From an uncultured virus (IMG/VR IMGVR_UViG_2912927692_000003) (taxonomy: Duplodnaviria; Heunggongvirae; Uroviricota; Caudoviricetes): 64,000 nucleotides of DNA. Of this stretch, positions 21,582-61,538 are shown piece by piece. The notes beneath the pieces were generated by a model that had not been told where the DNA came from, searched no databases, and saw nothing but the letters and a program-made list of their open reading frames with translations. The translations under genes were made by a program, and so were the position numbers. Within the stretch, counting starts at the first letter, position 1; every line of letters begins with the position of its first letter. The DNA lies in IMG/VR virus record IMGVR_UViG_2912927692_000003; one strand, given 5' to 3'.

Positions 21582-21620
21582 GTCGGCCAACTCTGGTCTT
21601 GCGGTGAGTTGGCATGAGCA

Positions 21621-21682: not shown

Positions 21683-21746
21683 AACGCCGAGTCCAGCATC
21701 CAGGTCTGTGCCGTATGGGCAGTGGGGTTAGTGGTAGTGAGAGACG

Positions 21747-21772
21747 AAAAAGCCCGGCTCTAGGCCGGGCTT
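21747..21772 (-). terminator. Terminator after repressor gene
   Basis: AAGCCCGGC-CTAGA-GCCGGGCTTTTT on minus strand. Confidence 0.8.
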
Positions 21773-21827
21773 CAGGTTGGCAAGGATGGTTTGAGAGGGA
21801 AGGGGCAGCTAGTCGCTCTTGACGGGG

Positions 21828-22301: not shown

Positions 22302-22308
22302 GTTGTCG

Positions 22309-22380
22309 ATTCCATAGCAAAACGCTAATTGTGTATATGTGCGTTACGCTATGGGAATTAATCTAGCGTTACGCTATATT
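22309..22380. promoter_or_regulatory. OR operators with divergent PR/PRM
   Basis: TAGCAAAACGCTA 22315, GTGCGTTACGCTA 22339, TAGCGTTACGCTA 22364; PR -10 TATATT 22375-22380; candidate PRM TATACA-17-TGGAAT. Confidence 0.85.
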
Positions 22381-22410
22381 TGGCTGGCGTCTGTCTACGG
22401 AAGCTGAAAA

Positions 22411-22650
22411 ATGAAGCTGAAACCTTACCTTGACCAGCGTCGCGGAGCTGGCTCCTGGCTCGCTCGCGAAATCGATGTTTCACCAGTCCTTGTGTCGCAA
22501 TGGGCCAATGGTGTGCGGCAGGTTCCTGCGGAACACTGTCCATCTATTGAGCGAGCAACTGGCGGGCTGGTCACCTGTGAAGAGATGCGACCGGATGTCG
22601 ATTGGGCCTGCTTGCGTCAGCGCCCAGTCCCGTCACTACAAGCGATTTAA
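22411..22650 (+). CDS. Cro/YdaS-like regulator
   Basis: LAREIDVSPVLVSQW..VPAEHCPSIERATGG.VTCEEMRPDVDW. Confidence 0.9.
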   Translation: MKLKPYLDQRRGAGSWLAREIDVSPVLVSQWANGVRQVPAEHCPSIERATGGLVTCEEMRPDVDWACLRQRPVPSLQAI

Positions 22651-22687
22651 CCATGGCGCTTGTCAGTGATCGAAGGTTGGTCCAGGT

Positions 22688-23656
22688 ATGAATCTCGCGG
22701 ACATGCTTGACCGTCCGATTGCATTCCAGCGTGCGTTCGTATCGTTGGGCGCCGGCATCACTGGTGCCTTGATGCTCTCGCAGGCGGTGTATTGGACCTG
22801 CCGCACCGAAGATGCGGACGGCTGGTTCTACAAGACCATGGACGAGTGGGAAGCCGAGACGGGCATGACCAGATCCGAGCAGGAGGGTGCACGCAAGAAA
22901 CTGGTGAAGTGCGGAGTCCTTGAGGAGATGAAGAAGGGTGTTCCTTGCCGGCTCTACTACCGAGTGAACATGGACGCGATAGCTGCAAACTTGAATGCGG
23001 AAAACCTGCAATCCAGTTTGCAGAAAACCCGCAAACAAGGATGCGGAAATCCTTCAGGCAAGTCTGCGGAAAAGCCGCAAGCCAGTACGCGGAAAAGCCG
23101 CGAGCAAGGTCGCGGAAAACCCGCAGTTCTTACAGAGACTACTTCAGAGATTACTTCAGAGATTACCCCTGAGATTTCTGCCGGGGAGGCTGCGCCGGCC
23201 CCGGGCGGGGAATTCGTCGGCGCCGAGCAAGAGCCCGGGCCGCGCTGCCAGATACCGGCCGACATGCCAGGCCCGAAAGACCCGAACTGCAAGGCGTACC
23301 GCACATGGGCCAACTACGCCATGGCCTATCGCACTCGATACACCGCTTGGCCGGTTTGGAACGCATCGGTTGCCGGCAAGCTTTCGAAGCTGATCGATCG
23401 TGTGGGCCAGGCCGACGCGCCAAAGGTGGCCGCGTTCTACGTCAAGTGCATCCACGATGCTCGACTGATTGCTCAGCACCATCCCCTCGGCCTGTTGCTG
23501 GCGAACGCTGAGGGCTACCACACGATGTGGTTGACCAATCGCCCGACCACCGGAACGCAGGCACGCCAGCAGGAGAACACCGCATCGAACTTGTCCGCCG
23601 CTGAGCAGGCCCTGGCCGAGCAGAGAGCGAGGAGGGCTGCCCATGCTGACGCCTGA
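22688..23656 (+). CDS. Replication initiator (lambda O-like)
   Basis: ALMLSQAVYW..GWFYKT..WEAETG wHTH; internal iterons. Confidence 0.85.
   Translation: MNLADMLDRPIAFQRAFVSLGAGITGALMLSQAVYWTCRTEDADGWFYKTMDEWEAETGMTRSEQEGARKKLVKCGVLEEMKKGVPCRLYYRVNMDAIAANLNAENLQSSLQKTRKQGCGNPSGKSAEKPQASTRKSREQGRGKPAVLTETTSEITSEITPEISAGEAAPAPGGEFVGAEQEPGPRCQIPADMPGPKDPNCKAYRTWANYAMAYRTRYTAWPVWNASVAGKLSKLIDRVGQADAPKVAAFYVKCIHDARLIAQHHPLGLLLANAEGYHTMWLTNRPTTGTQARQQENTASNLSAAEQALAEQRARRAAHADA
22996..23177 (+). repeat. Putative replication origin: six 23-bp-phased iterons plus 12-bp tandem repeats
   Basis: YGCRGAAA core at 22996, 23019, 23042, 23065, 23088, 23111; then AGAGATTACTTC-like repeats 23134-23177. Confidence 0.85.
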
Positions 23657-45627: not shown

Positions 45628-47520
45628 ATGGGTATCGCACCGGATAGCATCCTTGGCGTTGCGGTGGACACCGTTACGGACAAGATGAATGACCTTGAGG
45701 CGCTGGGCAGCAAGTACAGCGCAGAGCTGTCTGCCGCGCTGGCGAAGATCGGCGACATCACGGTGGCTGACGTGCCGGCGCCGACGCGACCGGATGCGCC
45801 TATCGCTTCGCCGCCGCCCGTCAACCTCGGCGAGCAGCCGACCTTTAACCCTTCGTCCCTGGTCAAGCCGGAAGCCCCTGGGGGCTTGAACATCGACGAC
45901 TTGCTGGCCGACCTGGACGTGGGCGACATGGACGACCTACCCGACGCGCCGACAATGATTCCGATCAACATCCCGGACGCGCCGACCATGACGGCCATCC
46001 CGGTGCCGGAACGCCCGGACATCGACACCACGGTGGAGATTCCCGATGCGCCGCAGATCGTCATGCCGGACATGGAAGCGCTGGAACAGATCCGACTGCC
46101 GGAATTCGTGTTCCCCGAGTTGCCCACGTTCGACGCCACGCCGCCGGACGCGAGCGGGATCACGGTGCCCAACGTCTTCATCAACTGGCTGGAGCCGGAG
46201 TACCAGTCCGAGGTGCTGGACGAGTTGCAAGCGAAGATCAAGGAACTGATGGCGGGAGGCACCGGACTGCCGGCGCCCATCGAGCAGGCGCTGTTCGCCC
46301 GTGCCCGCGAACGCGACAGTGGCGAAACCACGCGCGCCGTGCAGGAGGCGGTCGATACTTGGGCCGCCCGCAATTTCTCCATGCCGCCGGGGATGCTCGC
46401 CAGGCAGGTAGATGTGGTGCGCGAGCAAGGCCGGCTGAAGGCGGCCGAACTGAACCGCGACATCCTGGTGCAAGCGGCCACCTGGGAAATCGAGAACCTG
46501 CGCTTCGCCGTGCAGCAGGGCCTGGCCCTCGAGCAGTTGACCGAGAACATGCACCAGAACATGGCGCAGCGCCTGTTCGAGGTCGCCCGCTTCCACGCGG
46601 AAAGCCAGATCAACGTGTTCAATGCGCAGATCAGCCTGTTCAACGCGCAGAACGCGGCCTTCGAGACGCTGGCGCAGGTCTACCGCACCAAGCTGGATGC
46701 GGCTATCTCCAAGCTGACTGCCTACAAGACGGCCGTGGAGGGCCAGGTGGCGCTGGGGCAGATCAACCAGCAGCGCGTCGAGGTGTTCAAGGCCAAGCTG
46801 GATGCCGTACAGTCGAGCGTCGAGGTCTACAAGGCGCTAATGCAGGGCGCTTCCGTACGCGCCGAGACGATCAAGAATCAGTTCGACGCCTACCGCGCGG
46901 ACGTGCAGGCGTATGCCGAGCAGATCGGCGCCGAGAAGGTCAAGTTCGACGCCTACGAGGCCCGCGTCAAGGGCGAGTCGGCCAAGGCGGACGTGCTTGA
47001 CGCGCAGGCCCGCGCCTACGCTTCGACCATCCAGGGGCTGGCGAACAAGGCCGATGTCAAGGTCAAGGGTGCGCAGATCAAGATGGAGGCGGCGCGCACC
47101 AAGGTGTCGAAGTTCTTGGCGGACGTGGACGCCTACAAGGCCACCCTGCAGGCCAACCTGAGCGAGGTGCAGTACAACACGTCGGTGTTCCAGGCCCAGG
47201 TAGAAGCCTGGCGCGCAGCGGCCAGTGCCAACGTGGCCGACGCCGAGATGCAATCGCGCTTTGCCGACATGAACAGCCGGACCAACATCGCATACGCGGA
47301 AATGCAGATCAGCGAGTACACCGCGAAGATGCAGAATGCCGTACAGCAGGCGCAGATCGCCCTGGAGGCAGCCAAGGCCTTGGGGCAGTACACCGCCCAG
47401 CTCGCGGCCGGCGCTATGTCGGCGGCACATGTATCGGCCAGCATCAGTGGCTCAGGAAGTGCTAGTACAGGTGAAACAAAATCCGAAACAACTTCGACTT
47501 CTTATAATTATAACTATTGA
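45628..47520 (+). CDS. Structural/internal protein with Pro-rich N-half and long coiled coil
   Basis: 630-aa ORF; Ala/Gln-rich helical C-half. Confidence 0.7.
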   Translation: MGIAPDSILGVAVDTVTDKMNDLEALGSKYSAELSAALAKIGDITVADVPAPTRPDAPIASPPPVNLGEQPTFNPSSLVKPEAPGGLNIDDLLADLDVGDMDDLPDAPTMIPINIPDAPTMTAIPVPERPDIDTTVEIPDAPQIVMPDMEALEQIRLPEFVFPELPTFDATPPDASGITVPNVFINWLEPEYQSEVLDELQAKIKELMAGGTGLPAPIEQALFARARERDSGETTRAVQEAVDTWAARNFSMPPGMLARQVDVVREQGRLKAAELNRDILVQAATWEIENLRFAVQQGLALEQLTENMHQNMAQRLFEVARFHAESQINVFNAQISLFNAQNAAFETLAQVYRTKLDAAISKLTAYKTAVEGQVALGQINQQRVEVFKAKLDAVQSSVEVYKALMQGASVRAETIKNQFDAYRADVQAYAEQIGAEKVKFDAYEARVKGESAKADVLDAQARAYASTIQGLANKADVKVKGAQIKMEAARTKVSKFLADVDAYKATLQANLSEVQYNTSVFQAQVEAWRAAASANVADAEMQSRFADMNSRTNIAYAEMQISEYTAKMQNAVQQAQIALEAAKALGQYTAQLAAGAMSAAHVSASISGSGSASTGETKSETTSTSYNYNY

Positions 47521-47554
47521 TTCTGCGGGTCACGGGACATGGAAGTTTCGTATT

Positions 47555-47905
47555 TTAAGGCTGGTTGTCTTTTTGAAGATTTTGATATTCTTCCCAAGGT
47601 TTTTTTTCTTCGTCATACAGCTTGCTGCATGCAATGAATATCATGCGGCCAGCTAAGTTGCTCGGTGTCTCCTTTCCTATTGCCATCATGCAATCTCTGC
47701 CTGACTTGTAGCCAAATAATCCTCTCCCAGACCCTTGTTCGACCTCTAAGAGTGCATTTGGGTATTGGCCTGCGCAAAGACTTATCACCACCCGGGCAGC
47801 CTGATCGTTTTGCACTTCTGGCATTTTATCCAAAATGCATGTTGCATAGTCTCCTGCTATTGAAGAGGTGGAGATAATTGTCAGTAGGAACAATAAATTT
47901 CTCAC
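47555..47905 (-). CDS. Secreted four-cysteine moron protein (VF_A0006-like)
   Basis: Signal peptide ..SSIA-GDYATCILDKM..C..C..ACSKLY; AT-rich; own GGAG RBS and TATATT -10; antisense to late operon. Confidence 0.8.
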   Translation of the reverse strand: MRNLLFLLTIISTSSIAGDYATCILDKMPEVQNDQAARVVISLCAGQYPNALLEVEQGSGRGLFGYKSGRDCMMAIGKETPSNLAGRMIFIACSKLYDEEKKPWEEYQNLQKDNQP

Positions 47906-47978
47906 AAGTACTTTTCTCCGGTTGTGCGCCCGGAATATATAGCTTTTGGTTCATTGGCGGAAAGTGGATACGCCATAG

Positions 47979-48021
47979 CCCCCTGTAGGGTTCGTCCAAA
48001 AATGAGACGAGCAGCAAGATT
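47979..48021 (+). promoter_or_regulatory. Late-operon motif copy 3
   Basis: CCCCCTGTAGGGTTCG then CAAGAT at 48015. Confidence 0.7.
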
Positions 48022-48054
48022 GAATCTGTATCCAAGCCGTTTTAGAGGCATCCC

Positions 48055-50217
48055 ATGTACGGATTCAAGAAGGGCGCCAAGCCCAAGCAACGATTTGCAG
48101 ATGGTGGGCGGGTGCGTGGTCCAGGCACTGGCACCTCCGACGACATCGACACCGAGGTGCCCGCGGGCAGCTACATCATGCCGGCCGATTCGACCGAGCA
48201 GATTGGGGAAGCGGCGTTGCAGGGTATGGGAGCGCCGGTCCCGGTCAGCCTGAGCAACGGCGAGTACCAGATGCCTCCCGAGCAGGTTCATGCCGTTGGC
48301 GTGCAGGCGCTGGACGCTGTGAAGAATGCCACTCATGTGCCGGTAGCCCAGCAGGCAAAAGGGTTCTCTCCGCGTAAAAGGGGAGAGAATGGCGCCGAGA
48401 AGCCGGAATTGTTCTTCGCCGACGGCGGGGTTGTCGATGAAGAGCGCAAAAAGCAGACCCGTTTCGACATCACCAACACGCCCGCCGCCCAGCGTGCCGC
48501 TGGCGTTGTGCCGGAGGCATCGTCTCCCGTAGCTACCAGCGGCTACAGTGCAGACCCCACCATGGCAAAGGCGCAGGCCAATATCGATGCTGAACGGCAA
48601 GCGATGGCTGTGCATCGCCAGCGCACTGCGGATGCCGCGAATCTCCAGCCGGGAGTGGCACCAGGCTACAGCGACAACCTCTATACCGCCAACGCCCAGG
48701 CACGTTCGGATGCAGCCCGGCAACAACAGGCTGTGGCGCAATCTGGCGCGCTGCCAGATGCGCCGTCGGCGCAAGGCTTCTCGCCCTCGCGACAAGGTAA
48801 TGACCCAGCCAGAGCGGCAAGGATGCAGGCTCAGTTTGATCAACCGGTAACGGGCCCTGCTCGATCCAAAGCGGCTGGTTTCACTCCGCAGTACCGTTCT
48901 GAAGGGCCTGGCTGGCGAACCGACTCGGTTCTCCGCGGGACGGGCGACGACGTAGCGCAGCAGTGGGCATCGGGTGAGTATGCCCGTGGCTTTGGGACCG
49001 GCGTGCGTGGGGCGCTTGCGGCGGTTCCCGCAGCATTCGCTGATGCTGGAGAGGATGTCGGTCGATTGGCGGAACCGGTGATCAACTTCGGTAAAGGGCT
49101 ATTCGGATGGGATGACACTCCGCCGGCGCTTCGTGGTCAGCAAGCAGCCCAGGGTGCAGCGGCGCCAAGTTCCAGTGCTGCGCCCGGGCGAGGCCAGGTG
49201 TTGCCGGCTGCTGGTGCGCCAACCGGAGCGCTGGAGTCGGCGGCGAATACTGGAGCTGCTATGCCAAGCGCCGGTGGCCCGGACCTGCCCAACAACGTGA
49301 CGCGGGTGGGCAACAGCTTCTCCGGCACAACAATCCGCCCGGGCTACACCGTTAACGGGGAAGCTCAAGCTGCGGGGTTCGCCCCAGGTGGTCAGCGGAG
49401 TGCTCAAAACCAGCGCGCAGTGGAGAACCTGCTGGCCCGAACGCCTGATGTGGGTATGGGGTTCAGGCCGAGTTCTGTCTCCCAGGTACCGCCGATGGCC
49501 CCGGACGCGTTGGCTCAGTACAACGCCGGTAACTCCGGCGCGCCTCGGGTAACCGTGGTTCCCGATAGCTCTCGGGCCGATAGCGTTCGCCAGGCCGCCT
49601 TGAATGCAGCCTCAACACCTTATCGCGGTTCGCCGAACGGGCAGTTAACTGCCCGCCAGATCGACAACCTGTTCGGGCTCCAGCAGAGCGATGACCGCAA
49701 TGCTACGTCCCTGGCGAGCACTCGGGCGAATAACGACACGGCCTTGGTGCGGGAGCAGGTGCAACAGCAGGGCGCAAATCAGCGCGCGGCTCTACAGGAA
49801 ATGGGGCAGGGCGCGCGCTTCCTCGCCGCCAACGAACTCGATCGCCAGCGCCTGGCTGGTGAGCAAGAGGCCAGGGGTTTCCAAACCCGCGCCGCCCAGC
49901 GCATCGAGAAGCTGTACGAGCAGTACGACAAGGCTGCTCCCGAAGACCGCGCCGCGATCGCCGAACAGATTCGTGTGCTTGCTGGTAAGGACGCTCCGAA
50001 TCGCTTCACCGTGGTACCTGGCGGCCAGGAGTACGACCCGCAGTCCATGCAACTTCTGACGCGCCCTGCACGAGTACTCAACAACCAGACCGGCCAATTT
50101 ATCGACCAGCAAACGCAGTCGGCGCAACCCGTCGCTCCGCGAACTGGTGAGGTGCGAAGTGGATACCGGTTCAAGGGAGGGAACCCTGCCGACCAGAATA
50201 ATTGGGAGAAGGTGTAA
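48055..50217 (+). CDS. Putative internal virion/ejection protein
   Basis: FADGGRVRGPGTGTSD..LSNGEY; low complexity; C-terminal GYRFKGGNPADQNNWEKV. Confidence 0.7.
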   Translation: MYGFKKGAKPKQRFADGGRVRGPGTGTSDDIDTEVPAGSYIMPADSTEQIGEAALQGMGAPVPVSLSNGEYQMPPEQVHAVGVQALDAVKNATHVPVAQQAKGFSPRKRGENGAEKPELFFADGGVVDEERKKQTRFDITNTPAAQRAAGVVPEASSPVATSGYSADPTMAKAQANIDAERQAMAVHRQRTADAANLQPGVAPGYSDNLYTANAQARSDAARQQQAVAQSGALPDAPSAQGFSPSRQGNDPARAARMQAQFDQPVTGPARSKAAGFTPQYRSEGPGWRTDSVLRGTGDDVAQQWASGEYARGFGTGVRGALAAVPAAFADAGEDVGRLAEPVINFGKGLFGWDDTPPALRGQQAAQGAAAPSSSAAPGRGQVLPAAGAPTGALESAANTGAAMPSAGGPDLPNNVTRVGNSFSGTTIRPGYTVNGEAQAAGFAPGGQRSAQNQRAVENLLARTPDVGMGFRPSSVSQVPPMAPDALAQYNAGNSGAPRVTVVPDSSRADSVRQAALNAASTPYRGSPNGQLTARQIDNLFGLQQSDDRNATSLASTRANNDTALVREQVQQQGANQRAALQEMGQGARFLAANELDRQRLAGEQEARGFQTRAAQRIEKLYEQYDKAAPEDRAAIAEQIRVLAGKDAPNRFTVVPGGQEYDPQSMQLLTRPARVLNNQTGQFIDQQTQSAQPVAPRTGEVRSGYRFKGGNPADQNNWEKV

Positions 50218-53200
50218 TGGCCGATACCAGCAAGCCATGGGAAGAGTTCGCGTCTCAACAGCCAGTAACTGGTGGCGAGAAGCCGTGGGAGGAGTTCGGT
50301 GGCGAGACGAAGGAGGAGGGAAGAGGCCTGATCGGGCATGCGCGCGACCTTGGCCTATCCGTGGCCAAGGGGGTGATTGGGGTTCCGGAAGCGGCTGTTG
50401 GCCTCGCTGATATCCCAACAGAGGGTCGCGTAGGTAAGTTCCTCGAGAACCAGGACGGCATGCTTGGCTTCCGGCCCCGGGAAGCGAGGGATTTCCTGAG
50501 TGATCTGCACACCGATCAGTACAAACAGCAACAGCAGGACTTTCAGGATGCCGATGGCGTCGTAGACAAGACGCTGCATGCTGTACAGAACCCGTCGATG
50601 GTCGTGAACACCGTAGCGGAGTCTTTGCCTTCCATGTTGGCGGGGGGCGCGGTCGGTCGTGGCGTTCGGGCGCTGGCTCCAGCGTTGGCACCTGTGGCAG
50701 CCGGCGCGGCTGGCGAAGGGGCGGTGATGGCTGGTCAGCAAGCAGAGCAAATCCGCCAAGAAACTGATGACGGCTTGCTCACTCCGGCGCAGTCGGGAGC
50801 CGCGGTGGCCACTGGTGTGTTGGGAAGCCTGTTTTCCCTTGCCGGCGGTAGCTTGGCCAAGAAACTGGGTATCGGTGATGCGGATACCCTCCTCGCTGGT
50901 GGTGCCAACCCAGGACAACTGGTCAGCGAGCTGGCGTCCATGCCGGCGAAGAGCATTCCGCGGAAGGTGATAGAGGGCGCGATCTCCGAGGGCTTCCTTG
51001 AGGAACTGCCACAGTCCGCATCTGAGCAGGTTCTGCAAAACCTGGCGCTGGGACGGGACTGGGCCAGCGGCCTGGATGAAGCGATGGTAATGGGAACGCT
51101 GGCCGGGATGGCCATGGGTGGGCCGGCGGCGGTTCTGCATGGCGGTCAGCCGGCAGCGTCCCGTGGCCTGGCGGATGCGGACGCCACCTTCGAGAGTACC
51201 CCAGGCCTTGAGGGGAAGAGCGAGACAACTGCGCCACTGGCACTCCCAGCTCCAGTGTATGAGGCTGGTTCTGACGGCCAGGTCCGGACCACGGTCGACC
51301 AGAACTCCGCTACCCAGGTACAGCGTCAGCAAGAGGCTGAACGTCTGGACCGAATCCGTCGAGGGGAAGTCACCGATGTGACTCCGGTCCCGGCGGCCCC
51401 AAAGCGCTCCGAGCAGATGGGGCTGGACCCGGCTACTGGGCCACTTTCTGGTGCTGCTGCGCAGGCCGTGGACAGTGGCGCAACTGACCAGTTGGTGCAG
51501 CAGGCCGCGCTCCAGCAGGCTGCCGAGGAGGCACAGAAGAGCGGCAGGAAAGGCGAACAGGTCAACCCGGAAACCGGTGAGATTACTGCGGAGCAGGGTG
51601 ATCTGTTGGCATCAGATCCTGTCACCGATCTGCAGGGCCGCCTGGAATTTGTTCACCGGCAAGCCCGTGCCACTGGATGGGACGCGAAGAAAATCGCCGA
51701 GCGCGATCGCTTGCAGGAAGAACTGGACAAGCTCGCGCCACCGCCGGATGCCGGCTACATGCAGCGCGTCGGTGAGCGCGTGAAGCGTATCGAGGCCGCG
51801 CAGAGCCCCGATGAAATTGCCGCGATCCTCGCCGAGGATCAGCAGGATGAGCAGCGCCACCAGAACGCCGCTGGCCGGGTGGAGCTAGCCGCCCGTGCTC
51901 GCGGCTTCGCCCTGGACCAGGCGGCGCAGCAGCAAGCCCCGACGCCAATCGGTGTGCAGGACGACATCCAGCAGGCCCAAGGCAAGGCTGACACGCAGCA
52001 GGCGCAAGCCGCACAACCGGTTGCATCGCCGGCGCCGGCAGCGGAATCCGTACCGGCCGCGTCTGCGCCTGCGATAGAGGCCGCGAAGCCGTCCAACCTG
52101 AAAGACGCCATCGCCAAGGTGCGCCAGGACAAGGCGCAAGCGCCGAAGGCCGAGCCGGTCCAGCAGACCGCCGCACCCGCCGCCGATCAAGCACGCTACG
52201 CCGACCTGGCGCAGCAGTTCAATGCCATGGTTCCGCAGTTGAAGGCGGCGCGCGAGGGCGGCAACACTTCCGAAGTGGAGCGCTTGACCAATGCCATGCG
52301 CCCGCTGGACACCGAAATGCGCCAGCTCCAGGCGCGCGAAACCAAGCGCACCTTGGATCTTGGCCAGCAGGCATCCAAGGCGAAGCTCGAGCAGGAACTG
52401 TCCGGCGAGGCCATCGGCACCCGCCGCCGCCCGAGTGAGCACGCGCCGGAGAAGGGCCTGTACTGGGAAAAGACCGGCACCAATGAATGGACCGGGCGCG
52501 GTGCGTGGTTCCAGAAGGGCAAGACCCGCACCGACGCGGACATGGCGCAGTTCGGCGGCACGCTGGTGATGCCGTCCGAGCAGGCCGCGCAGAAGGCCCC
52601 GAGCATCGAAGGCAAGGACATCGGCGAAGGCTGGGCGGAGTTCAGCAAGGAATCGGGCACCGCGGGTATCCCTCGCGCCGACATGCCGCAGATCAAGGCC
52701 GAGCACCGCGGCGCGATGGTGAACTTCCTGAGCGCTCGTGGCGTGCAGCATCAGGAAGAGACAGTTCCCGCAGATACCCTCAAACCGACGCAGGCGGAGT
52801 TCAGCCGGGATAAGGTGGCGAAGGCCAAGGGCTTCGAAGGTGGCAACCGCTCCATTCTGGTGTCGCGTGACGGCCATGTGCTGGACGGCCATCACCAGTG
52901 GATGGCGGCCCGCGACAACGGCGAAGAGGTGAAGGTGATCCGCCTGGATGCCCCCATCCGCGACCTGGTGAAACTGGCCCACGAATTTCCCAGTTCCACC
53001 ACCGATGCCAGCAGCGGGCAGGGCGCCACGGTTGAAGCGAAGCAGGTGAGGCCCAAGCCTGAGCCAGCAGCTCCTGATGTGCCTAAGAAGAAGCCGCGCG
53101 GCGTGCTGGCAAAGAGGTTACAGGCCGAGGCCCAGGCCCGCGCCGAATACTTCACCCCCGGCAACGTGGTGCGAGGTTACGGCGCCAACTACGACAGGGT

Positions 53201-56200
53201 TATCAGCTACAACCCGACCGAATCGGGAAGCTGGACCGTCACGGTGCGCAGTGTACGCAAGGAAGGCGACACTTGGGTGGATGTCCCGGGCGAGAGCGAG
53301 CGCACTCACATGACGGCGCCGGATGCGCGCGACATGAAGCGCGGCCCGGCCGGCCGTATCGCAACACAGGGGGCGCCAACCGCCGATGAGTTCCCCTTGA
53401 AGGAAGCCGCAGCCAGCTACTCCGGTATCTCGAACAGCAGCAGCCAGCGAGCGAAGTCCGATGCGGATGAGTTCCAGACCTACATCGACGTGGCCCGCGA
53501 CGCGGGCGCTGTCGTGGCACGCACCGATGCTCAGCAGGCGGCCGTGGAGCAAGCCACACGAGAATTGCGGGCCGATTACCTGGCCCAGTACCGGCGCCTG
53601 ATGAACGTGCGCGCCGGCACCTACAGCGGCTATGTTGTCGGGCGTTCTGGACTGAACAGCAAGCAGGCGGACAGGCGCAACAGCGCCTACGACCGCGCCA
53701 TCGACACATTCGTGGCCTGGCAGAAGTCCAATCAGGATCGCGTGCGCCAGGCGGCACTGGACGCCCGTACCGACGAGGAAAAGGCGGCAGATCGCCAGGC
53801 CGCCGAGCAGGCCCGTGCCGACAAGGCGCAGCGCAAGGAAGACGGGGACCGCAGCCTGATGCGCAGGATTCTGTCCTGGAAGAAGGGCAGCGAGCCGGTG
53901 GCGATCACCAAGACCGCGCACCTTGCCGGGGTGAACTTCGGCAAGGATGGCTACCCGACCAGCATTAAGTTGACGCCGACCGATGGCAGCGTGCTGACGA
54001 GCGACAAGTTCGACCTAGCGACGCTGTTCCGTGAGCGCGGCATGAGCGTGCCGGAGTCGAAACGCCGCGTGCGTGAACTGGTCGATTTCGTGCGTGCCGA
54101 GGATGCAGCCCGGCCCCAGTCCGAACCGGCAGAGGCACCCAAGCCCGATCCCGCGCAGCCCAGCGTTTCGAAAACCCCGACGCTCGATGAGCATGTAGCC
54201 CTCATGCAGCGCGCGCGCAGTGGGGAGGCGACCGCCGACGAGTTCCGCCAGGCATTCGAGCGTACGCAGAACGCCCGCGACGCCCTGGTGGCCGAGCTGG
54301 GCACTATGAAGAAGGATGAACTGCTGAAGTCAGGCGGCTACAGCTTCTTCCACCGCTACCGCAACGAGAAGAAGGCAGCGATTGTCGATGCCCTGGTCGG
54401 TCGCGTGTTGGAGGAATTTGCGCTGGGCCGCAGCTACGGCCCGAGCAGCTACGTGATGTCGGCTGCTGGCCTCGAAGCGCACCGCCAGGCCAAGGCCAGC
54501 GCGCTGGCCGAGCTGGTGGCGAACACCACCGACGACGACATCAAGGCGCACGCCGCCGAGGTCGCCGAGGCGCAGCAGGAAATCCAGGCCCGCCGGGCAG
54601 CGCAGCAGAAGGCTGTCGCCAACCCGCAGACCCTCGCCGAGTTCCGCCAGGCAGTGAGCTACAACATGGAGACGCACGGGGAGTCCCTGCGGGAGGCGTT
54701 CATGCGCCTGACGCCGGAACAGCGTATTCGCTACGACGAACTGGAGGCTGAGAGCACCAAGGCCCTGCGTGAGCAGGCCAAGGCACAGGCCAAGACCCGC
54801 GTAGCCAGCGCCGGGCAGACTACGGCCGGCGACATCATCGAGACGAAGCACACCAAGCACGGGCATGACCTGTTCGTGGTCCAACTGGCCGAGCGCGTCA
54901 GCCGTGAGGACTACGACACCCTGAACAATTCGGCGAAGCGGCTGGGCGGCAGCTACAGCAGTTATCGTGGGAATGGCGCCGTCCCCGGCTTCCAGTTCCG
55001 CACCCGCGAGGCGGCCGAAGCATTCCGTAAGCTGGTGACAGGCGACACCGCCGACGCGCAGGCCGTTGCAGAAGCGCGCCGCGACGCCTTCGAGGATGAC
55101 CGCAGTCAGGGCGCCGCCGAGCGACTGCGCACCATGGCTCAGGCCCTCAACGAGCGGGCCGATGAAGCGCTGAATCGCGAGCGCAAGCAGAACACCGAGC
55201 GCCGTGCGCGGATGGCCGCCCGCGCTGAGGCCTCTGCGCGGTCCGACAAGGCACTGGCCGCCACCATGAACAACCTGGCCGATGCCATCGAGGGCGGCAA
55301 GGCCAAGTTCCTGGACACCGTGCGGCAGAAAGTGCAAGTGGAGTTCCTGGCGCGGGAACTGCGCAATGCGAAGGACGCGCAGATTCGTGCGAAGTACCCG
55401 ACTTACGGCGAGCAGGAGAAACACCGCGGCGAGCCGGTGGACGCCGAGACGGTGGACTACTCCACCTTCCCCAGCTACACCGCCATGCGCTCCGACCTAG
55501 CGAGCCTGGCGCGCCAGATGGCGGATGTGGACGGCCTGAAGAAATTGGCCGCGCGCCTGGAGAAGGTCGCCGACGATGTGACCGAGGCCTACACGGACTG
55601 GGCCAAGCAGAATCTTCTGTCCGTCAGCCGCTTCACCCGCGGTGACCAGTTCGCCGACTTCAAGAGTCGCGAGGATGCCGAGCGTGCCATTCGCCGCTCC
55701 GGCCTCACCGGCAAGGCCATCGTGCTTCCGGTGAAACGCGGGCAGAACCGCATCGTCATGGCCCCCAGCGAAGCCATGAAGCTGGGCCTCTGGCAGGGCG
55801 ACGGCGACAAGCGCATAACGCTGTCCGGCGAGTTCGGCGGCGAACTGGTGCAGGCCCTCGGCCGGCGCAGTGGCAGCAAGATCACCGTTCCGTGGGCGCT
55901 GGAGAGCGCGCACGAAAAGCGCAAGCGCCTGGAGAGCATGGGCATCCTCACCGGCAGCGAGTACCGCTCTGCACTGCGCGAGTTCGTAGCGCTGCGCGAG
56001 GCGCCCGCCGAGCCCGACAAGATCAGGGAAATGGAACGGTCCATGATCGGCCGTCGAAATGACGGACTGGACTTCTTCCCGACTTCGGCCGCCGTCACCG
56101 AGGAAGCCGTCGACGCCGCCGACATCCAGGAAGGCATGGACGTGCTGGAGCCTTCCGCCGGCATGGGCCATATGGCCGACGCGATCCGCGAGCAGACCGG

Positions 56201-59200
56201 CGTAGAGCCCGATGTGGTGGAGCTTTCCAGCGAACGCCGCGAGTTGCTGGAGGCCAAGGGCTACAACCTGGTCGGCTCCGACTTCATGGAGGTGTCCGGC
56301 AAGCAGTACGACCGTATCGTGATGAACCCGCCGTTCTCCAAGGGGCGCGACATCCAGCACGTACAGCACGCCTACAGCCTGCTGAAGCCCGGCGGCCGCC
56401 TGGTTGCCATCATGGGCGAAGGCGCCTTCTTCCAGAGCAACAAGGCCGCCGAGAACTTCCGGGCCTGGCTGGACGGCCTGGGTGCCACCAGTGAACGGCT
56501 GCCGGAAGGTTCGTTTATGGACCCGGCGCTACCCGTCAATACCGGCGTGAACGCGCGCATGGTGGTGATTGACAAGCCGGCAGCCGAAGAGTCGGCAGCG
56601 CCGCAGCCCGGCGAACAACCGCCCGTGCAGTACTCGTTCGCCGGCCGCAATGCCGTCGGCGCCAACCTGCATGCCCTGAGCACCGCACAGCAGCGCATCG
56701 CCATTGGCGAAAACGCCGAGGCCGTTCGCCGAGATACCGGTTGGCACCGTAGCGCTGATGGCAAGTGGCGCTTCGAAATCAGCGATCATCAGGCCAGCAT
56801 CGCCGTGGCCGGTGAGACTGCTGGCGCCATCATCAATATGGCCCACCTCAATGCCATCAACGACGAGCGCAGTCGACCGACCGTCGGCGATGTGCTCAAC
56901 CATCCTCAACTGTTCGCTGCATATCCTGACCTGCAGCGTATCCCGGTGGCAGTGATGCCAGAGGGCATCACTGCGCTGGCTCGCCTACGTCGGTTCGCCA
57001 CGGGTAACCAAGTTGAGGTTCAGGCGAACATGCCGCGCACCGAGGTTGCCTCGGCGATCCTGCACGAACTCCAGCATGCGATACAGATCCGGGAAGGTTT
57101 CGCCATGGGTGGCTCGGCCAGGGCTTTCGTCAGCAACTTCGACAAGACTGGTGCGGCGACCTATCGTCGTTTGGCTGGAGAGGTTGAGGCGCGCAACACG
57201 CAGGCTCGGCTGAAAATGACGCCGCGCCTGCGCCGGGACATCGCACTCGATGAGTCGGCGGACATCCCTGCAAGTCAGGTGCTGGTGTCGTTCAATGGCC
57301 GCGACATCGAGAATGGCCCGTTGCCGCAGAACCTGACGGGGCGTCCGCCGATGACCTCGCAAAGCCTGGTTCGTGCTTTCGACCTGCAGTTCCCAGCCCT
57401 GGGCCAGGCTGTGCGCAAGATGCTGAAGCGCGGCAAGGAAGGACAACGGGGCGGCTTGGTGGTGATCGACAGCGCCGACCCGTTGCGCATCGCGCACACC
57501 TACGCGCGGAAATCCGGTACCGCACTGAGCGATGCCGTTCAACTGTTTGAGGATGGCGGGCGCATCAATGGCTTCTACGATGCCAGATCAGGTCTAACTT
57601 TTCTGGTCGGCCCGAACCTGAATCCGGTAACCGCACCGGCCGTGGTGCTTCACGAAATGGTTCACGGCCAGCAGCGGCAGAATCTCGACCAGGCTGCCCA
57701 CGCCATGCTGATGAATCGCGGCAACGTGCGGAGCGCCGAACTGCGCACCTTCCTGGACCGTGTGGCCAGCCGCATGATCGAGGCCGGCGAGAGCCGCAAC
57801 ATGAAGGAGGCCGCTCCGTATATCGTGGAGCAGGCTGTTATTGAAGGGCGAGAGCAGGGGTTCGCCGAGGCTGATAGCCGGTTCCTGTCCTGGGTAGACA
57901 GTGCGCTGGGCAAGCAGGTGGGTGACTTCCTGCGTAGGTTCCTGGCCAACATCCGTCAGTGGATGCTGCGCCACGGTCTGCCGGTTGGCCGTATCAGCGT
58001 GGACGATCTGGTGCGATATGCGATGGCTGGCGTGGAAAGCGCCGCCGAAGGCCGGGTACGGGGCGACGGCCTAGCCATGAGCCAGGACGACATGCGAAAG
58101 GCGCGCGTGCTGCAAGGCCCGCCGGTGGCCATCCTGGAGGGAAATGAAGCACCACAGGGCTTCGCTGCGGTTCGCGAGTGGGCGGCGAAGCTATTCGAGT
58201 CTCAAGGTGGCAAGGCAGTGAACCCGGACCTGGGCGACGTGGTGCTGGATATGCGCGCTGTGCGCGACTCGATGGCGCATGGCAAGGCCAACCCATACAA
58301 GTTCTCGGCGTTCGCGGCCGTCAAGGACGTGCTGGAGCGAGGTGTGGTGGTTCACCGCGCGGACTATGAGAAGGGGGAGAGTTTCTACGTGTCGGCGCCG
58401 GTGGTGATCGACGATAAGGATGACATCGTGACTGTGTTGGTGCGCCGCGATCCGAACATGCAGCGCATGTATCTGCATTCGGTGGCCACAAAAGAATATC
58501 TCCTGAACCGTCGAGTATCCGGTGCTGATGCCATGATGGCAGCGCAGCCTTCCGGCTCGTCCAGTTCAGGAGACGTAGCCAGTGTACTCCAGCGGCTGCT
58601 GACCGCAAGCCTGAATGAACCCGAAGGTCCGCAGTTCAGTCGCTCCGGTCTGCGCGAACTCACCAGCAAGGCTACCGCCGAACTGAACAAGACCTTCAGC
58701 GCTCCGGGAGGCCTGTCCTGGTGGCACAAGACCATCGGCACCATGTACAACCTCGCAGAGCGTTCCCCGGCATTCAAGCCGGTCTTCGAGTCGGCGCAAG
58801 GATTTATCGATGACGTGAGCTATTACGCCAGCGATGCGGCTGATCTGGCGCCGAAACTGCTGCCGAAGCTGGAAACCTGGCGCGACATTGCAAAGTCCCC
58901 GGTGGGCGCTGAGGACAACAAGGCGGTGGCCAAGCCGGTATTCGAGGGCACGCTGATGTGGGCGCGCGACGTGGACGGCAAGCCGGTGCGCGTCGATTCG
59001 CTGGCTGAGCGCGCCATGCGTCTGACGGCCGACGAGAAGGCGGACATCCTGCTGAAGCAGGGCAAGATTCCCGAGGGACTGCTGCGCGCCTGGCGCGGCC
59101 TGAGCCCCGAGCAGTTCGCCAAGATGATCGACAGCCGCTACGAGGCGCAGATGCTCAAGGCAGGCATCGTCTGGACCGACGCTGAGCTGCGCGACATATG

Positions 59201-61538
59201 GAAGCTCAACGATGCTCAGGTCGCGCTGTACCGCGAGTTCCGCGCCGCCACCGACCGTAGCCTGGACACCATGGCCCGCGCCGACATGCTGCGCTTCGGC
59301 GGCGAGGATGTGAAGGAACTGCGCGACCAGGTGATGGACGCGGCCGATGCGCAGGAGGGGGCCGCGATACTGCGCGACCACCTGGCGCAGATGGCTGATG
59401 CATGGCCGGAACGCGCCACGAACCTGCTGAACCTGGCACACGGCATGACGGATCGCGCCGAGAAGGTCGCCCAGTTGCAGGGCGAGGGCTATGCACCGCT
59501 GTCGCGCTTCGGCAAGTACACAGTGGACGTGGTGGGTCAGGACGGTCAGCGTGAATACTTCAGCCTGTTCGAGACGAAGCGCGAGGCCAACCAAATGGCT
59601 GAGCAGATGCGTGGCGCGTTTCCTGGCGCCACCGTGAGCCAGGGCACCCTGTCCGAGGAAGCGTACAAGCTATTCGCCGGCATCACACCGGAAACGCTGG
59701 AACTGTTCGGCAACGCCCTCGGTTTCGACTCACAGGGCGATAGCGCACGTGATCAGGCTTTCCAAGACTACCTGCGCCTGACAAAGACCAACCGCAGCGC
59801 AATGCGCCGGCTTATTCACCGAAAGGGCATCGCTGGTTATAGCGAGGACGTAGGGCGGGTACTGGCCTCGTTCGTATACTCCAATGCGCGGCAAACCGCC
59901 GCCGGTCTGCACATGGGCGACCTTTCCGAGGCTGTGAACGGCATCCCGCAGGCGCAGGGCGAACTGAAGGACGCCGCGGTACGGCTGGCCGACTACATCA
60001 AGAACCCGCAAGAGGAGGGGCAGGCGGTGCGCGGACTGCTGTTTGCGCAGTACCTCGGCGGGTCCGTCGCGTCAGCCTTCGTCAACATGACCCAGCCGGT
60101 CCAAGTGACTTTTCCCTGGCTGAGTCAGTATTGCGGGGTGAAGCGCGCTGCGGCGGAACTGGGGCGGGCAGCACGACAGATGGCGCAGCGCTCCTATCAG
60201 TTCGAACCGGACCTGGCCCGGGCACTAAAGCGCGCAGAGGATGATGGGGTGGTGTCCCCGCAGGAGGTCCACCAGTTGATGGCGCAGGCCCGCGGCAGCG
60301 GCTCGCTGCGCGCCGGGGACGGGACGCGCTTGGGTGATGCTCGAGCACTTGCGTCCAACAGCGTGGCGCGCCTGTCGATGGCCTGGGGCAAGTTGTTCGG
60401 CGCCGCAGAGCAGATCAACCGCCGCATGACCTACATCGCGTCGTATCGCATCGCCAAAGCGCAGAACATGGCCAATCCTGACGAGTTCGCACGCCGGGCC
60501 GTGCGCGAGACGCAGTTCGTATACTCCAAGGCCAGCAAAATGCGCTGGGGGCGTGGTGCCGTCGGCGGCACCTTGATGACCTTCAAGACGTACAGCGTGG
60601 CCTATCTTGAGCTGATGCATCGCTTGTGGAATCAGGGTGAGCCTGGTTCGCAGGAGCGCAAGGACGGTCGGAAGGCTGCTGCCCTGATGATCGGTATGCT
60701 GCTGCTCGTCGGGGGCGCCGGTGGCTTGCCGTTCGCCGAAGACGCCGAAGACCTGATCGACGGTGCGGCGCAACTCATGGGCTACAACTTTTCTACCGCG
60801 AAGGCCAAACAGGAGTTTCTTGAAAGTCTGTTCGGTCGGGTGCTTGCCGACTTCATTGATCGCGGGGTGTCCGGGCTGCCTGGGGCTCCGCTCGATGTAT
60901 CGGGCCGGCTGGGTATGGGGAACCTGATACCCGGAACCGGTCTGCTAACTGAAAAGACCAGCCATACGCGAGACGTCCTGGAAATAGCTGGCCCGATGGG
61001 AGACTTTGCCAGCCGAATAGCGAGTGGTACTCGCAAGGTGCTGGGAGGTGATATCGGCAGCGGTATCCTGGAGATGTCGCCGGGCGCGGTGCGAAATGCG
61101 GCCAAAGGCGTGGATATGATGGCCACTGGCATGTACAGGGACGCCAAGGGCTACAAGGTGCTCGACACCAACGTGCTCGAGGCCGCTATGAAGTCCATCG
61201 GCTTCCAGCCGGCCAGCGTAGCCACTATCCAAGGGGCCAACATGCTCAACCAGAAAGCAAAGGCCTTCTACAACTTGAAAGCCCAGGAAATTCGCAGTAT
61301 GTGGGCGGCCGGCATCTTCGAGAAAGACCAGGGCAAGGTTGAGCGCGCGCGGCAAGCAATAGCCGATTGGAATCGGCGCAACCCTGACCAGCCAATGGCC
61401 ATCCGAGTGCCAGACATCATGCGACGAGTCCGCGAAATGTCGCTATCGAAGGACGAACGGATAGCGAAGACCGCACCGAAAGCGATGCGGCAGCAGATGC
61501 GAGAGGATCTGGAGCGCACCCGCGCAACGCTGGACTGA
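50217..61538 (+). CDS. Giant polyvalent internal virion protein (ParB-like, N6-adenine MTase, two HExxH, nuclease-like, PLxRFG)
   Basis: LKPTQ..DGHHQW; FFPT..LEPSAGMG..MNPPF; GKWRFEISD; HELQH; HEMVH; PLSRFG. Confidence 0.88.
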   Translation: MADTSKPWEEFASQQPVTGGEKPWEEFGGETKEEGRGLIGHARDLGLSVAKGVIGVPEAAVGLADIPTEGRVGKFLENQDGMLGFRPREARDFLSDLHTDQYKQQQQDFQDADGVVDKTLHAVQNPSMVVNTVAESLPSMLAGGAVGRGVRALAPALAPVAAGAAGEGAVMAGQQAEQIRQETDDGLLTPAQSGAAVATGVLGSLFSLAGGSLAKKLGIGDADTLLAGGANPGQLVSELASMPAKSIPRKVIEGAISEGFLEELPQSASEQVLQNLALGRDWASGLDEAMVMGTLAGMAMGGPAAVLHGGQPAASRGLADADATFESTPGLEGKSETTAPLALPAPVYEAGSDGQVRTTVDQNSATQVQRQQEAERLDRIRRGEVTDVTPVPAAPKRSEQMGLDPATGPLSGAAAQAVDSGATDQLVQQAALQQAAEEAQKSGRKGEQVNPETGEITAEQGDLLASDPVTDLQGRLEFVHRQARATGWDAKKIAERDRLQEELDKLAPPPDAGYMQRVGERVKRIEAAQSPDEIAAILAEDQQDEQRHQNAAGRVELAARARGFALDQAAQQQAPTPIGVQDDIQQAQGKADTQQAQAAQPVASPAPAAESVPAASAPAIEAAKPSNLKDAIAKVRQDKAQAPKAEPVQQTAAPAADQARYADLAQQFNAMVPQLKAAREGGNTSEVERLTNAMRPLDTEMRQLQARETKRTLDLGQQASKAKLEQELSGEAIGTRRRPSEHAPEKGLYWEKTGTNEWTGRGAWFQKGKTRTDADMAQFGGTLVMPSEQAAQKAPSIEGKDIGEGWAEFSKESGTAGIPRADMPQIKAEHRGAMVNFLSARGVQHQEETVPADTLKPTQAEFSRDKVAKAKGFEGGNRSILVSRDGHVLDGHHQWMAARDNGEEVKVIRLDAPIRDLVKLAHEFPSSTTDASSGQGATVEAKQVRPKPEPAAPDVPKKKPRGVLAKRLQAEAQARAEYFTPGNVVRGYGANYDRVISYNPTESGSWTVTVRSVRKEGDTWVDVPGESERTHMTAPDARDMKRGPAGRIATQGAPTADEFPLKEAAASYSGISNSSSQRAKSDADEFQTYIDVARDAGAVVARTDAQQAAVEQATRELRADYLAQYRRLMNVRAGTYSGYVVGRSGLNSKQADRRNSAYDRAIDTFVAWQKSNQDRVRQAALDARTDEEKAADRQAAEQARADKAQRKEDGDRSLMRRILSWKKGSEPVAITKTAHLAGVNFGKDGYPTSIKLTPTDGSVLTSDKFDLATLFRERGMSVPESKRRVRELVDFVRAEDAARPQSEPAEAPKPDPAQPSVSKTPTLDEHVALMQRARSGEATADEFRQAFERTQNARDALVAELGTMKKDELLKSGGYSFFHRYRNEKKAAIVDALVGRVLEEFALGRSYGPSSYVMSAAGLEAHRQAKASALAELVANTTDDDIKAHAAEVAEAQQEIQARRAAQQKAVANPQTLAEFRQAVSYNMETHGESLREAFMRLTPEQRIRYDELEAESTKALREQAKAQAKTRVASAGQTTAGDIIETKHTKHGHDLFVVQLAERVSREDYDTLNNSAKRLGGSYSSYRGNGAVPGFQFRTREAAEAFRKLVTGDTADAQAVAEARRDAFEDDRSQGAAERLRTMAQALNERADEALNRERKQNTERRARMAARAEASARSDKALAATMNNLADAIEGGKAKFLDTVRQKVQVEFLARELRNAKDAQIRAKYPTYGEQEKHRGEPVDAETVDYSTFPSYTAMRSDLASLARQMADVDGLKKLAARLEKVADDVTEAYTDWAKQNLLSVSRFTRGDQFADFKSREDAERAIRRSGLTGKAIVLPVKRGQNRIVMAPSEAMKLGLWQGDGDKRITLSGEFGGELVQALGRRSGSKITVPWALESAHEKRKRLESMGILTGSEYRSALREFVALREAPAEPDKIREMERSMIGRRNDGLDFFPTSAAVTEEAVDAADIQEGMDVLEPSAGMGHMADAIREQTGVEPDVVELSSERRELLEAKGYNLVGSDFMEVSGKQYDRIVMNPPFSKGRDIQHVQHAYSLLKPGGRLVAIMGEGAFFQSNKAAENFRAWLDGLGATSERLPEGSFMDPALPVNTGVNARMVVIDKPAAEESAAPQPGEQPPVQYSFAGRNAVGANLHALSTAQQRIAIGENAEAVRRDTGWHRSADGKWRFEISDHQASIAVAGETAGAIINMAHLNAINDERSRPTVGDVLNHPQLFAAYPDLQRIPVAVMPEGITALARLRRFATGNQVEVQANMPRTEVASAILHELQHAIQIREGFAMGGSARAFVSNFDKTGAATYRRLAGEVEARNTQARLKMTPRLRRDIALDESADIPASQVLVSFNGRDIENGPLPQNLTGRPPMTSQSLVRAFDLQFPALGQAVRKMLKRGKEGQRGGLVVIDSADPLRIAHTYARKSGTALSDAVQLFEDGGRINGFYDARSGLTFLVGPNLNPVTAPAVVLHEMVHGQQRQNLDQAAHAMLMNRGNVRSAELRTFLDRVASRMIEAGESRNMKEAAPYIVEQAVIEGREQGFAEADSRFLSWVDSALGKQVGDFLRRFLANIRQWMLRHGLPVGRISVDDLVRYAMAGVESAAEGRVRGDGLAMSQDDMRKARVLQGPPVAILEGNEAPQGFAAVREWAAKLFESQGGKAVNPDLGDVVLDMRAVRDSMAHGKANPYKFSAFAAVKDVLERGVVVHRADYEKGESFYVSAPVVIDDKDDIVTVLVRRDPNMQRMYLHSVATKEYLLNRRVSGADAMMAAQPSGSSSSGDVASVLQRLLTASLNEPEGPQFSRSGLRELTSKATAELNKTFSAPGGLSWWHKTIGTMYNLAERSPAFKPVFESAQGFIDDVSYYASDAADLAPKLLPKLETWRDIAKSPVGAEDNKAVAKPVFEGTLMWARDVDGKPVRVDSLAERAMRLTADEKADILLKQGKIPEGLLRAWRGLSPEQFAKMIDSRYEAQMLKAGIVWTDAELRDIWKLNDAQVALYREFRAATDRSLDTMARADMLRFGGEDVKELRDQVMDAADAQEGAAILRDHLAQMADAWPERATNLLNLAHGMTDRAEKVAQLQGEGYAPLSRFGKYTVDVVGQDGQREYFSLFETKREANQMAEQMRGAFPGATVSQGTLSEEAYKLFAGITPETLELFGNALGFDSQGDSARDQAFQDYLRLTKTNRSAMRRLIHRKGIAGYSEDVGRVLASFVYSNARQTAAGLHMGDLSEAVNGIPQAQGELKDAAVRLADYIKNPQEEGQAVRGLLFAQYLGGSVASAFVNMTQPVQVTFPWLSQYCGVKRAAAELGRAARQMAQRSYQFEPDLARALKRAEDDGVVSPQEVHQLMAQARGSGSLRAGDGTRLGDARALASNSVARLSMAWGKLFGAAEQINRRMTYIASYRIAKAQNMANPDEFARRAVRETQFVYSKASKMRWGRGAVGGTLMTFKTYSVAYLELMHRLWNQGEPGSQERKDGRKAAALMIGMLLLVGGAGGLPFAEDAEDLIDGAAQLMGYNFSTAKAKQEFLESLFGRVLADFIDRGVSGLPGAPLDVSGRLGMGNLIPGTGLLTEKTSHTRDVLEIAGPMGDFASRIASGTRKVLGGDIGSGILEMSPGAVRNAAKGVDMMATGMYRDAKGYKVLDTNVLEAAMKSIGFQPASVATIQGANMLNQKAKAFYNLKAQEIRSMWAAGIFEKDQGKVERARQAIADWNRRNPDQPMAIRVPDIMRRVREMSLSKDERIAKTAPKAMRQQMREDLERTRATLD

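Follow-up and report, generated by a model that had tools for sequence, protein, structure and literature searches.

A four-cysteine protein of F116-like Pseudomonas phages shares a class-specific peptide with the giant virion protein of its own phage

To our knowledge, how the ejection proteins of podophages find one another after leaving the capsid is largely unknown. Phages and prophages encode secreted or lipid-anchored blockers of entry, among them Ltp of Streptococcus phage TP-J34, which reportedly acts on the tape-measure protein, and Llp of T5, and we know of no factor of this type that acts by imitating a peptide from an ejected protein of the same phage. Here, we analyze a 64,000-nucleotide stretch of viral DNA (IMG/VR record IMGVR_UViG_2912927692_000003; hereafter, the window), which is from an F116-like (Hollowayvirus) Pseudomonas aeruginosa phage. 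Within it lies a small antisense gene whose 116-amino-acid (aa) product has a C-terminal tail with a short peptide, KPWEEY, that recurs as KPWEEF, twice, at the very start of the phage's giant virion protein. The fold and hosts of Ltp and Llp differ from those of this small protein.

The other systems closest to this locus also act at, or take part in, DNA entry. SieA of P22 blocks DNA injection by related phages, and mutations that escape it lie in C-terminal regions of the ejection proteins gp16 and gp20 (PMC10883804). Like SieA, the small protein is a prophage-encoded accessory protein with a predicted envelope location and, as we propose, the ejection-protein conduit as its target; unlike SieA, it is a soluble-looking, secreted-type four-cysteine domain with a class-specific peptide tail. 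In the model for N4, the giant protein gp50 exits after the periplasmic tunnel protein gp51, with which its N-terminal domain associates (PMC13434306), and the window's giant protein resembles the N4 gp51/gp50 and T7 gp15/gp16 pairs in that an IVP-D-like giant would follow a tunnel protein out by way of its N-terminus (PMC13434306, PMC4819975). The putative contact at this locus differs in being a short, twice-repeated peptide read by a mini-domain of ~20-30 aa, in about twelve interchangeable classes, and no typed code or decoy is described in the available portions of the N4 and T7 papers. Finally, the HXS effector HxsA is likewise a periplasmic protein that stops phage DNA entry, but it belongs to a host system, is not phage-encoded, undergoes radical-SAM maturation, is proposed to bind DNA electrostatically and shows no mimicry of a phage peptide (PMC13128918). 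Blocking a phage at the DNA-entry step is a function of a known kind; what would be new is a secreted decoy that imitates, within a typed code, the docking peptide of the invader.

Tail peptides and giant N-termini

An earlier note on this DNA described an antisense moron with a signal peptide whose KPWEEY end copies the KPWEEF repeats of the phage's own giant protein. The antisense gene, its signal-peptide-like start, the tail motif and the giant's pair all lie where that note had placed them, with two corrections. The tail reads ..DEEK-KPWEEY-QNLQKDNQP, so that nine residues follow the motif and the protein does not end with it, and the copying is not literal at the DNA level, as identical residues of the window pair are encoded by the same codon in only one of five cases (20/39 nucleotides [nt] identical). 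The giant protein, in turn, opens from an ATG at 50217 with MADTS-KPWEEF, and the second KPWEEF follows after ten residues. When the 64 kb were scanned in six frames for W-E-[EK]-hydrophobic, a pattern picked after the data had been seen, all four matches fell in the small gene, the giant gene and the gene between them (hereafter, mid). Furthermore, the score of the window's 19-aa tail against the first 125 aa of its giant was reached by only 5 of 5000 shuffled tails.

The same relationship was then sought in loci seeded by the small protein, comprising nine genome loci and 58 viral contigs, mostly 55-65 kb in length; two partial hits (L017 and L075) were dropped. This search used a seven-sequence alignment and is consequently biased toward members with the N-terminal pattern G-[ND]-[YFL]-[AV]-[TS]-C-[IL]-L. 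Most loci have the family member in antisense orientation, flanked by a mid-gene homologue and a giant gene, and the peptide in its tail is the one of which its own giant carries two copies immediately behind the start methionine. This match between tail and own giant is seen in about twelve unrelated peptide classes (Table 1); the two motifs strikingly co-vary across related phages, and a lack of such co-variation was among the outcomes that the earlier note had named as refuting its proposal.

Table 1. Tail peptides and the N-terminal peptides of the giant protein encoded at the same locus
Locus	Tail peptide	Giant peptides
L009	DLFDEFGIEP	DLFDEFGID x2 (two copies)
L012	FSYEDAFGL	FSYDEAFGA / FSYEDAFGL
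L013	DRFGGVLV	DQFGGDLI / DAFGGTLV
L014	LAQEFGL	LADEFGL / LAEEFGL
L039	GPWNQY	APWENY / GPWSNY
L047	NFFDQFD	NFFDQFD x2
L049	LRPFNGPLDGE	LKPFTGELD / LKPFNGTLDGE
L057	DWERGELSPP	DWERGTF / DWEKGAFSTP
L061	VDRFLNG	IDDFLSG / IDAFLG
L069	NPFKRFH	NQFAKFH / NPFSKFH
L071	FDPSTARP	FDPTTAKP / FDPGSATP
L072	WWKKNSTPI	WWKQGSTPV x2

For 41 loci including the window, which together have 30 distinct tails, each tail was given its best ungapped BLOSUM62 score against the first 130 aa of the large opposite-strand open reading frame (ORF). Cognate pairs reached a median score of 40.5, compared to 19 for the 870 non-cognate pairs of the 30 distinct tails, and 30 of the 41 loci scored above the non-cognate 95th percentile (34.5). 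The observed diagonal sum was reached in none of 20,000 permutations, a far stronger result than that of the shuffled window tail. Their own giant was ranked first by 14 of the 30 distinct tails; where another giant outranked it, this was mostly one of the same peptide class, the exceptions being the unmatched tails L025 and L030 and the dual tail L074. There were three low scorers, and two of them (L025 and L073) were low through the wrong ORF having been scored, as their true giant N-termini hold the D-W-E-x-G peptide of the tail. The tails of L022 and L060 also match their own giants. The only locus with a true mismatch is L030, in which the tail combines F-G-E-N-D-type and I-D-R-F-L-type peptides and the giant carries NPFSDPNYG twice. 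In this viral contig, the family member lies downstream of the giant gene.

A second set of 79 loci was seeded by the conserved N-domain of the giant protein instead. A family member was present in 15 of these, and the 14 that could be judged gave 13 clear matches and one weak one (L096); six of the matches are long-form proteins that end in the peptide of their own giant. Some tails carry more than one peptide: a foreign peptide followed by the phage's own is found in L058, L065, L074, L119, L122 and L130, and in the long forms among them (L119, L122 and L130) the foreign peptide ahead of the self peptide is D-W-E-R-G. Such foreign or double peptides are easier to reconcile with defence against other phages than with a function in assembling the phage that encodes them.

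At the level of DNA, 79 of the 150 codons for identical residues are identical across 21 cognate pairs. As synonymous codons differ, the match between tail and giant is kept by selection on the protein and not by DNA copying. Two other candidate explanations were set aside along the way. One, that the tail and giant peptides form a DNA inverted repeat for an inversion switch or for recombination, was rejected because most synonymous sites differ; the other, that the tail motif is a mere family trait unrelated to the phage that carries it, was dropped after the cognate giants had been read.

The mid-protein mini-domain and the F116 cassette

A third element varies with the two peptides. In 61 of 65 loci, the stop codon of the small gene lies no more than 40 nt from that of an ORF encoded on the same strand as the giant. 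In the window and in six P. aeruginosa viral loci (L018-L023) this abutting ORF encodes a 630-aa protein and not mid. Where it is a mid homologue, its last ~30 residues form classes that correspond one-to-one with the tail classes. A mini-domain of the form G-[YW]-x-F-x-G-G-[DN]-P..N-W-x-x-[VA] pairs with PWxx[FY], ..AAEFDxKYGxGA.. pairs with NFFDQFD, ..REQKVEALRKLGYS pairs with [IV]DxFL, and ..GGKPVYEDxxGNRF.. pairs with LxPFxGxLD. The earlier note had suggested that a 'GYRFKGG domain' at the end of the intervening gene might read the peptide, and this link gains support in that the class of the mini-domain changes in step with that of the peptide. The pairing of PWxx[FY] with its mini-domain class recurs on three different giant backbones, and the pairing between mini-domain and giant peptide is also present in phages of the 79-locus set that lack the small gene.

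In the window, the C-terminus of the mid protein reads GYRFKGGNPADQNNWEKV; the TAA of its gene and the ATG of the giant have one base in common, an overlap that the earlier note had pointed out correctly. An AlphaFold2 (AF2) model of its last 80 aa has a predicted local distance difference test score (pLDDT) of 88-89, with short strands in the final 20 residues only.

Comparison of F116-like phages shows this region being exchanged. The 7 kb around the small gene are 98.9% identical to Pseudomonas phage phiC725A and match 38 phage records, all of Pseudomonas and all of the F116 group, genus Hollowayvirus. A second F116-like type (Baskent_P6, PA8 and the CF/BR series; 16 records) has a giant protein that is matched only from residue 33. 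This type differs from the window jointly in three places: the slot that holds the small gene, the mid C-terminus, which ends in ..EYEALPKGTQYMKDGQLRVKG, and the giant N-terminus, where a [WF]-G-x-N-D-x-[IV]-V peptide occurs twice at the start. The structural region of Baskent_P6 (capsid, portal and tail) aligns to the window as one 97% identical block of 21.3 kb, and the only breaks are the slot, the cassette of about 200 bp that comprises the mid C-terminus and giant N-terminus (Table 2), and a patch at 52132-52593. As the capsid, portal and tail block is 97% identical between the two types, there is no further virion protein that could act as the class-specific reader. Taken together, these findings show a three-way class correspondence between tail, giant peptide and mini-domain that is maintained at the protein level.

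The small protein, its family and its genomic surroundings

The region is the end of the virion operon, with the 630-aa, mid and giant genes in this order on the plus strand; coordinates are collected in Table 2.

Table 2. Features of the window around the small antisense gene
Feature	Coordinates	Strand	Basis or description
630-aa gene	45628-47520	+	ORF
Variable slot with small gene	47521..48016		clean indel relative to F116; alignment break relative to Baskent_P6
Small gene: 116-aa secreted-type four-cysteine protein, accessory 'moron', PF28034 / VF_A0006 family	47555..47905	-	antisense to late operon
Signal-peptide-like N-terminus (MR, hydrophobic core, SIA then GD)	47852..47905	-	sequence reading; layout across homologues
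Tail peptide KPWEEY, mimic of giant N-terminal peptide	47585..47602	-	sequence, motif scan, cognate scoring, shuffles
'Mid' gene, 720-aa virion/ejection protein, phrog_11341	48055..50217	+	position of T7 IVP-C
Mid C-terminal mini-domain GEVRSGYRFKGGNPADQNNWEKV (GYRFKGGNP..NWEKV)	50146..50214	+	class pairing with P-W-x-x-[FY] peptides
Cassette, about 200 bp (mid C-terminus and giant N-terminus)	50111..50312	+	exchanged as a unit between F116-like types
Giant gene, 3773-aa virion polyvalent protein	50217..61538	+	PLxRFG / IVP-D-like C-terminus, methyltransferase, ParB-like parts
Giant N-terminal peptide, copy 1, KPWEEF	50232..50249	+	sequence, motif scan
Giant N-terminal peptide, copy 2, KPWEEF	50280..50297	+	sequence, motif scan

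The small ORF begins with GTG, 10 nt downstream of a GGAG. Its protein starts with MRNLLFLLTIISTSSIA followed by GD, with a putative cleavage site between them as judged by eye, and homologues repeat this layout with A-x-A before [GA][ND][YF]A.C; two of them have a lipobox-like L-x-G-C. An extracytoplasmic location fits these family-wide signal-peptide-like N-termini and lipobox-like sites. The closest relatives of the small protein form four clusters with the precomputed label PF28034, and the three best ESM Atlas clusters (scores 0.91-0.92) are 64-94% PF28034, 'four-cysteine protein VF_A0006-like'. A Pfam scan of the small protein returned no family, from a copy of Pfam that was scanned without the PF28034 model. 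With a profile search, 447 family representatives were found at E<=1e-3. In an alignment of 40 sequences, C23, C44, C72 and C93 are invariant, as are G58, G60 and L96, and the small protein has the family layout of a four-cysteine domain of about 80 aa after a signal-peptide-like segment. The AF2 model is all-alpha with a pLDDT of 90.5; Foldseek found no match to it in the PDB at E<=0.001, the best Z from VIA-align against 48,161 chains was only 3.4, and a PADLOC-DB 2.0 scan of the small, mid and 630-aa proteins returned 0 families at E<=0.1.

Beyond the last cysteine motif, the family is highly variable. One of about 15 short peptide types is found in 53 of 120 representative tails, compared to 6 of 120 reversed tails. 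Long-form VF_A0006 proteins (L113, L119, L122, L126, L127 and L130) have an extra domain, HY..IY.AHPDAD.., between core and tail, yet they too terminate with the peptide that their own giant carries; the genes of L126 and L127 lie on the giant's strand. In the genome contig L016, a family member sits amid ordinary chromosomal-looking ORFs and has a five-residue tail with no peptide class. A literature search, which excluded supplementary files, found no paper on the motif strings, PF28034 or VF_A0006, and no description of the peptide pairs, the mini-domain classes or a PF28034 function. Literature on F116 together with exclusion and on PLxRFG yielded nothing about the small gene, and neither 'periplasm' nor 'PLxRFG' occurs in the available text of a paper on polyvalent proteins (PMC5512222).

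The small gene is accessory. It is present in 10 Pseudomonas phage records, representing seven phages after duplicates were merged, compared with 37 for the N-domain of the giant; it is absent from F116 (where the indel is clean), H66 and others, and nearly all records that carry it leave it unannotated. The break at the slot relative to Baskent_P6 sits in an alignment that is otherwise 95-97% identical, and the 1-kb bin with the small ORF has a G+C fraction of 0.53, compared to 0.62-0.66 in adjoining bins. Elsewhere in the window, positions 20001-23000 are also low in G+C (0.49-0.57, compared to about 0.64), possibly reflecting other foreign cargo or a regulatory region. In Baskent_P6 (L004), the equivalent of the slot holds a different, 63-aa ORF with two hydrophobic segments (939-1130, forward strand), which suggests that the slot is a hot spot for small envelope-directed cargo genes.

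RNA-seq data bear on expression in one run. In X7, a single 511-nt contig (47417-47927; depth 25.9, 0 differences) covers just the small gene, with 22 nt ahead of the GTG and 138 nt beyond the stop. It is the sole contig of that run on 46500-49000; the missing flank cover is no evidence of silence. Contigs of runs X8 and X10 run on into the late genes and are uninformative on separate expression, about which run X1, probably DNA, says nothing either.

The giant protein matches phrog_11358 at E=0 and phrog_2206, a virion RNA polymerase family, at 7.7e-12, and its homologues are named as PLxRFG or LPD-domain proteins. By sequence, it belongs with the IVP-D-like giant ejection or polyvalent proteins of the F116 group; its homologue in H66 is described as a structural protein with an IVP-D (T7 gp16-like) part (PMC4819975; see also PMC5217972), and the T7 IVP-C position of the mid gene follows the synteny argument of the former paper. 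Many giants of the same backbone carry a conserved leader in place of the peptide pair. Eight N-termini without the pair (L108, L120, L123, L124, L128, L132, L144 and L149) open with such a leader, about 45 aa long and of the M-D/N-I-x-E/Q-..-Y-P-D type, that might serve as a different, folded docking module. In the F116 record NC_006552 (L002) the giant is annotated as two genes (p59 and p60) and its N-terminus is matched in two pieces, perhaps through a frameshift or a sequencing difference exactly at the peptide pair; L086 has an out-of-frame leader. The patch at 52132-52593 lies inside the giant gene and is variable relative to Baskent_P6 within surroundings that are 95% identical. At the other end of the mid gene (48055-48200), the mid proteins of the window and of L012, L013 and L015 share the N-terminal sequence G-P-G-T-G-T-S-D..(P)-A-G-S-Y-I-(M/V)-P-A-D across distant phages.

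A proposed decoy and its alternatives

We propose that the small protein is a periplasmic decoy that competes for class-specific docking between ejection proteins and so causes class-specific superinfection exclusion, a reading of the sequence patterns toward which the balance tips slightly. The 116-aa protein would be exported to the periplasm of the lysogen, where its conserved four-cysteine helical core would present a variable C-terminal tail with one copy of the class peptide, here KPWEEY, of which the phage's own giant displays two at its extreme N-terminus. In the giant, this peptide is most likely a docking handle onto the C-terminal mini-domain of mid during ordered exit and assembly of the trans-envelope conduit. 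When a phage of the same class superinfects, the decoy already present in the lysogen would sit on the partner site of the incoming proteins, so that the conduit would fail, no DNA would enter and superinfection would be excluded by class; extra peptides in the tail would widen the range of excluded classes. In this scheme, we infer export, the binding partner and the exclusion phenotype. An arms race would fit the added and purely foreign peptides as well as the accessory distribution of the gene and the swapping of the cassette in otherwise near-identical phages. A wider version, which we hold tentatively and at a little less than even confidence, is that F116 / IVP-D podophages use a typed lock-and-key code, in which a twice-repeated giant peptide is read by the mid mini-domain in at least a dozen interchangeable classes, that VF_A0006 decoys exclude rivals by class, and that phages escape through a 200-bp cassette swap.

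Several observations weigh against the proposed decoy. In the AF2 model the tail is a helix (pLDDT 86-90), and it might thus pack on its own core instead of being free. A competitor in the periplasm might act too late if the proteins have docked before leaving the virion. Only 53 of the 120 representative tails hold a defined peptide class, and family members also occur with no giant gene nearby, some with no recognisable peptide (L010 and L016). The correlation between mini-domain and giant peptide (Mantel r 0.58, reached by none of 5000 permutations) was not controlled for phylogeny, and the DNA ends that encode tail and mini-domain abut in most loci, so that part of their pairing could be plain linkage. 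The RNA support is one strandless contig in one run, and a scan around the small gene returned 0 sites for a sigma-70-like promoter or an intrinsic terminator. Lastly, phiC725A lysogens do exclude phiC725A (PMC5217972), but this is explicable by repressor immunity and pilus effects.

Among other explanations, the tail could be a decoy for a host factor. The giant peptide would then bind a host envelope or periplasmic component needed for entry, which the secreted protein would saturate or mask, and the mid mini-domain would co-vary for another reason or bind the same factor. Tail mimicry and the accessory, secreted nature of the protein fit this equally well, and phiC725A lysogens also restrict an unrelated pilus-dependent phage (PMC5217972). 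However, KPWEEF and W-G-E-N-D-type classes coexist in one host species, in phages that are otherwise 95-97% identical, there are about twelve classes overall, and a host target would not explain why the phage's own mini-domain changes class in step. We judge a host target unlikely.

It is distinctly unlikely that the protein serves instead in the phage's own cycle, without being a defence against competitors. In that role it would act in the periplasm, where by capturing or neutralising the ejection proteins of sister virions it would spare the producing or lysogenic cell a wasteful or damaging re-infection, or would modulate lysis. That the last tail peptide is of the phage's own class in nearly all loci would be expected of such a role, as would the continuous shedding of phage by F116-like lysogens (PMC5217972). 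Mechanistically, this role overlaps with exclusion; it leaves the foreign-only tail of L030 and the added foreign peptides unexplained, and the small gene is dispensable in many close relatives.

A functionless tail might also travel as a linked passenger with the mid C-terminus and the giant N-terminus in a short recombining cassette, its resemblance to the giant stemming from old duplications. Cassette exchange is directly seen, and the tail end abuts the end of the mini-domain in the 61 of 65 loci described above. Against this, tail and giant start are set apart by the small gene's conserved core and by as much as several kb, and the window's tail, 2.6 kb from the giant start and not beside the mini-domain, still matches. 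Moreover, the retention of residues over partly divergent codons (79/150 identical) amounts to purifying selection on the peptide in about twelve independent classes, and double tails are assembled from recognisable peptide units, which makes a passenger very unlikely. Chance resemblance of short acidic-aromatic peptides is excluded: by a rough, uncomputed estimate it would a priori be no rarity for a 116-aa protein to have a 5-mer in common with a phage proteome, but the shuffles for the window (5/5000), the family-wide permutations (0/20,000) and the class-by-class match in two independently seeded locus sets leave no room for it.

The co-varying triplet marks a probable residue-level contact between two ejection proteins and shows that this contact comes in exchangeable specificity classes. 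If the proposed decoy is true, it would represent a new logic of superinfection exclusion, peptide mimicry of the invader's own assembly handle, and the first exclusion through mimicry of a phage's own ejection protein, with an arms race over the docking peptide of a DNA-ejection machine. Its specificity would be readable from sequence, such that one could predict which prophage protects against which phage, with bearing on Pseudomonas phage therapy and on the interpretation of prophage cargo. A Pfam family of hundreds of members, so far uncharacterised, would thereby gain a function.

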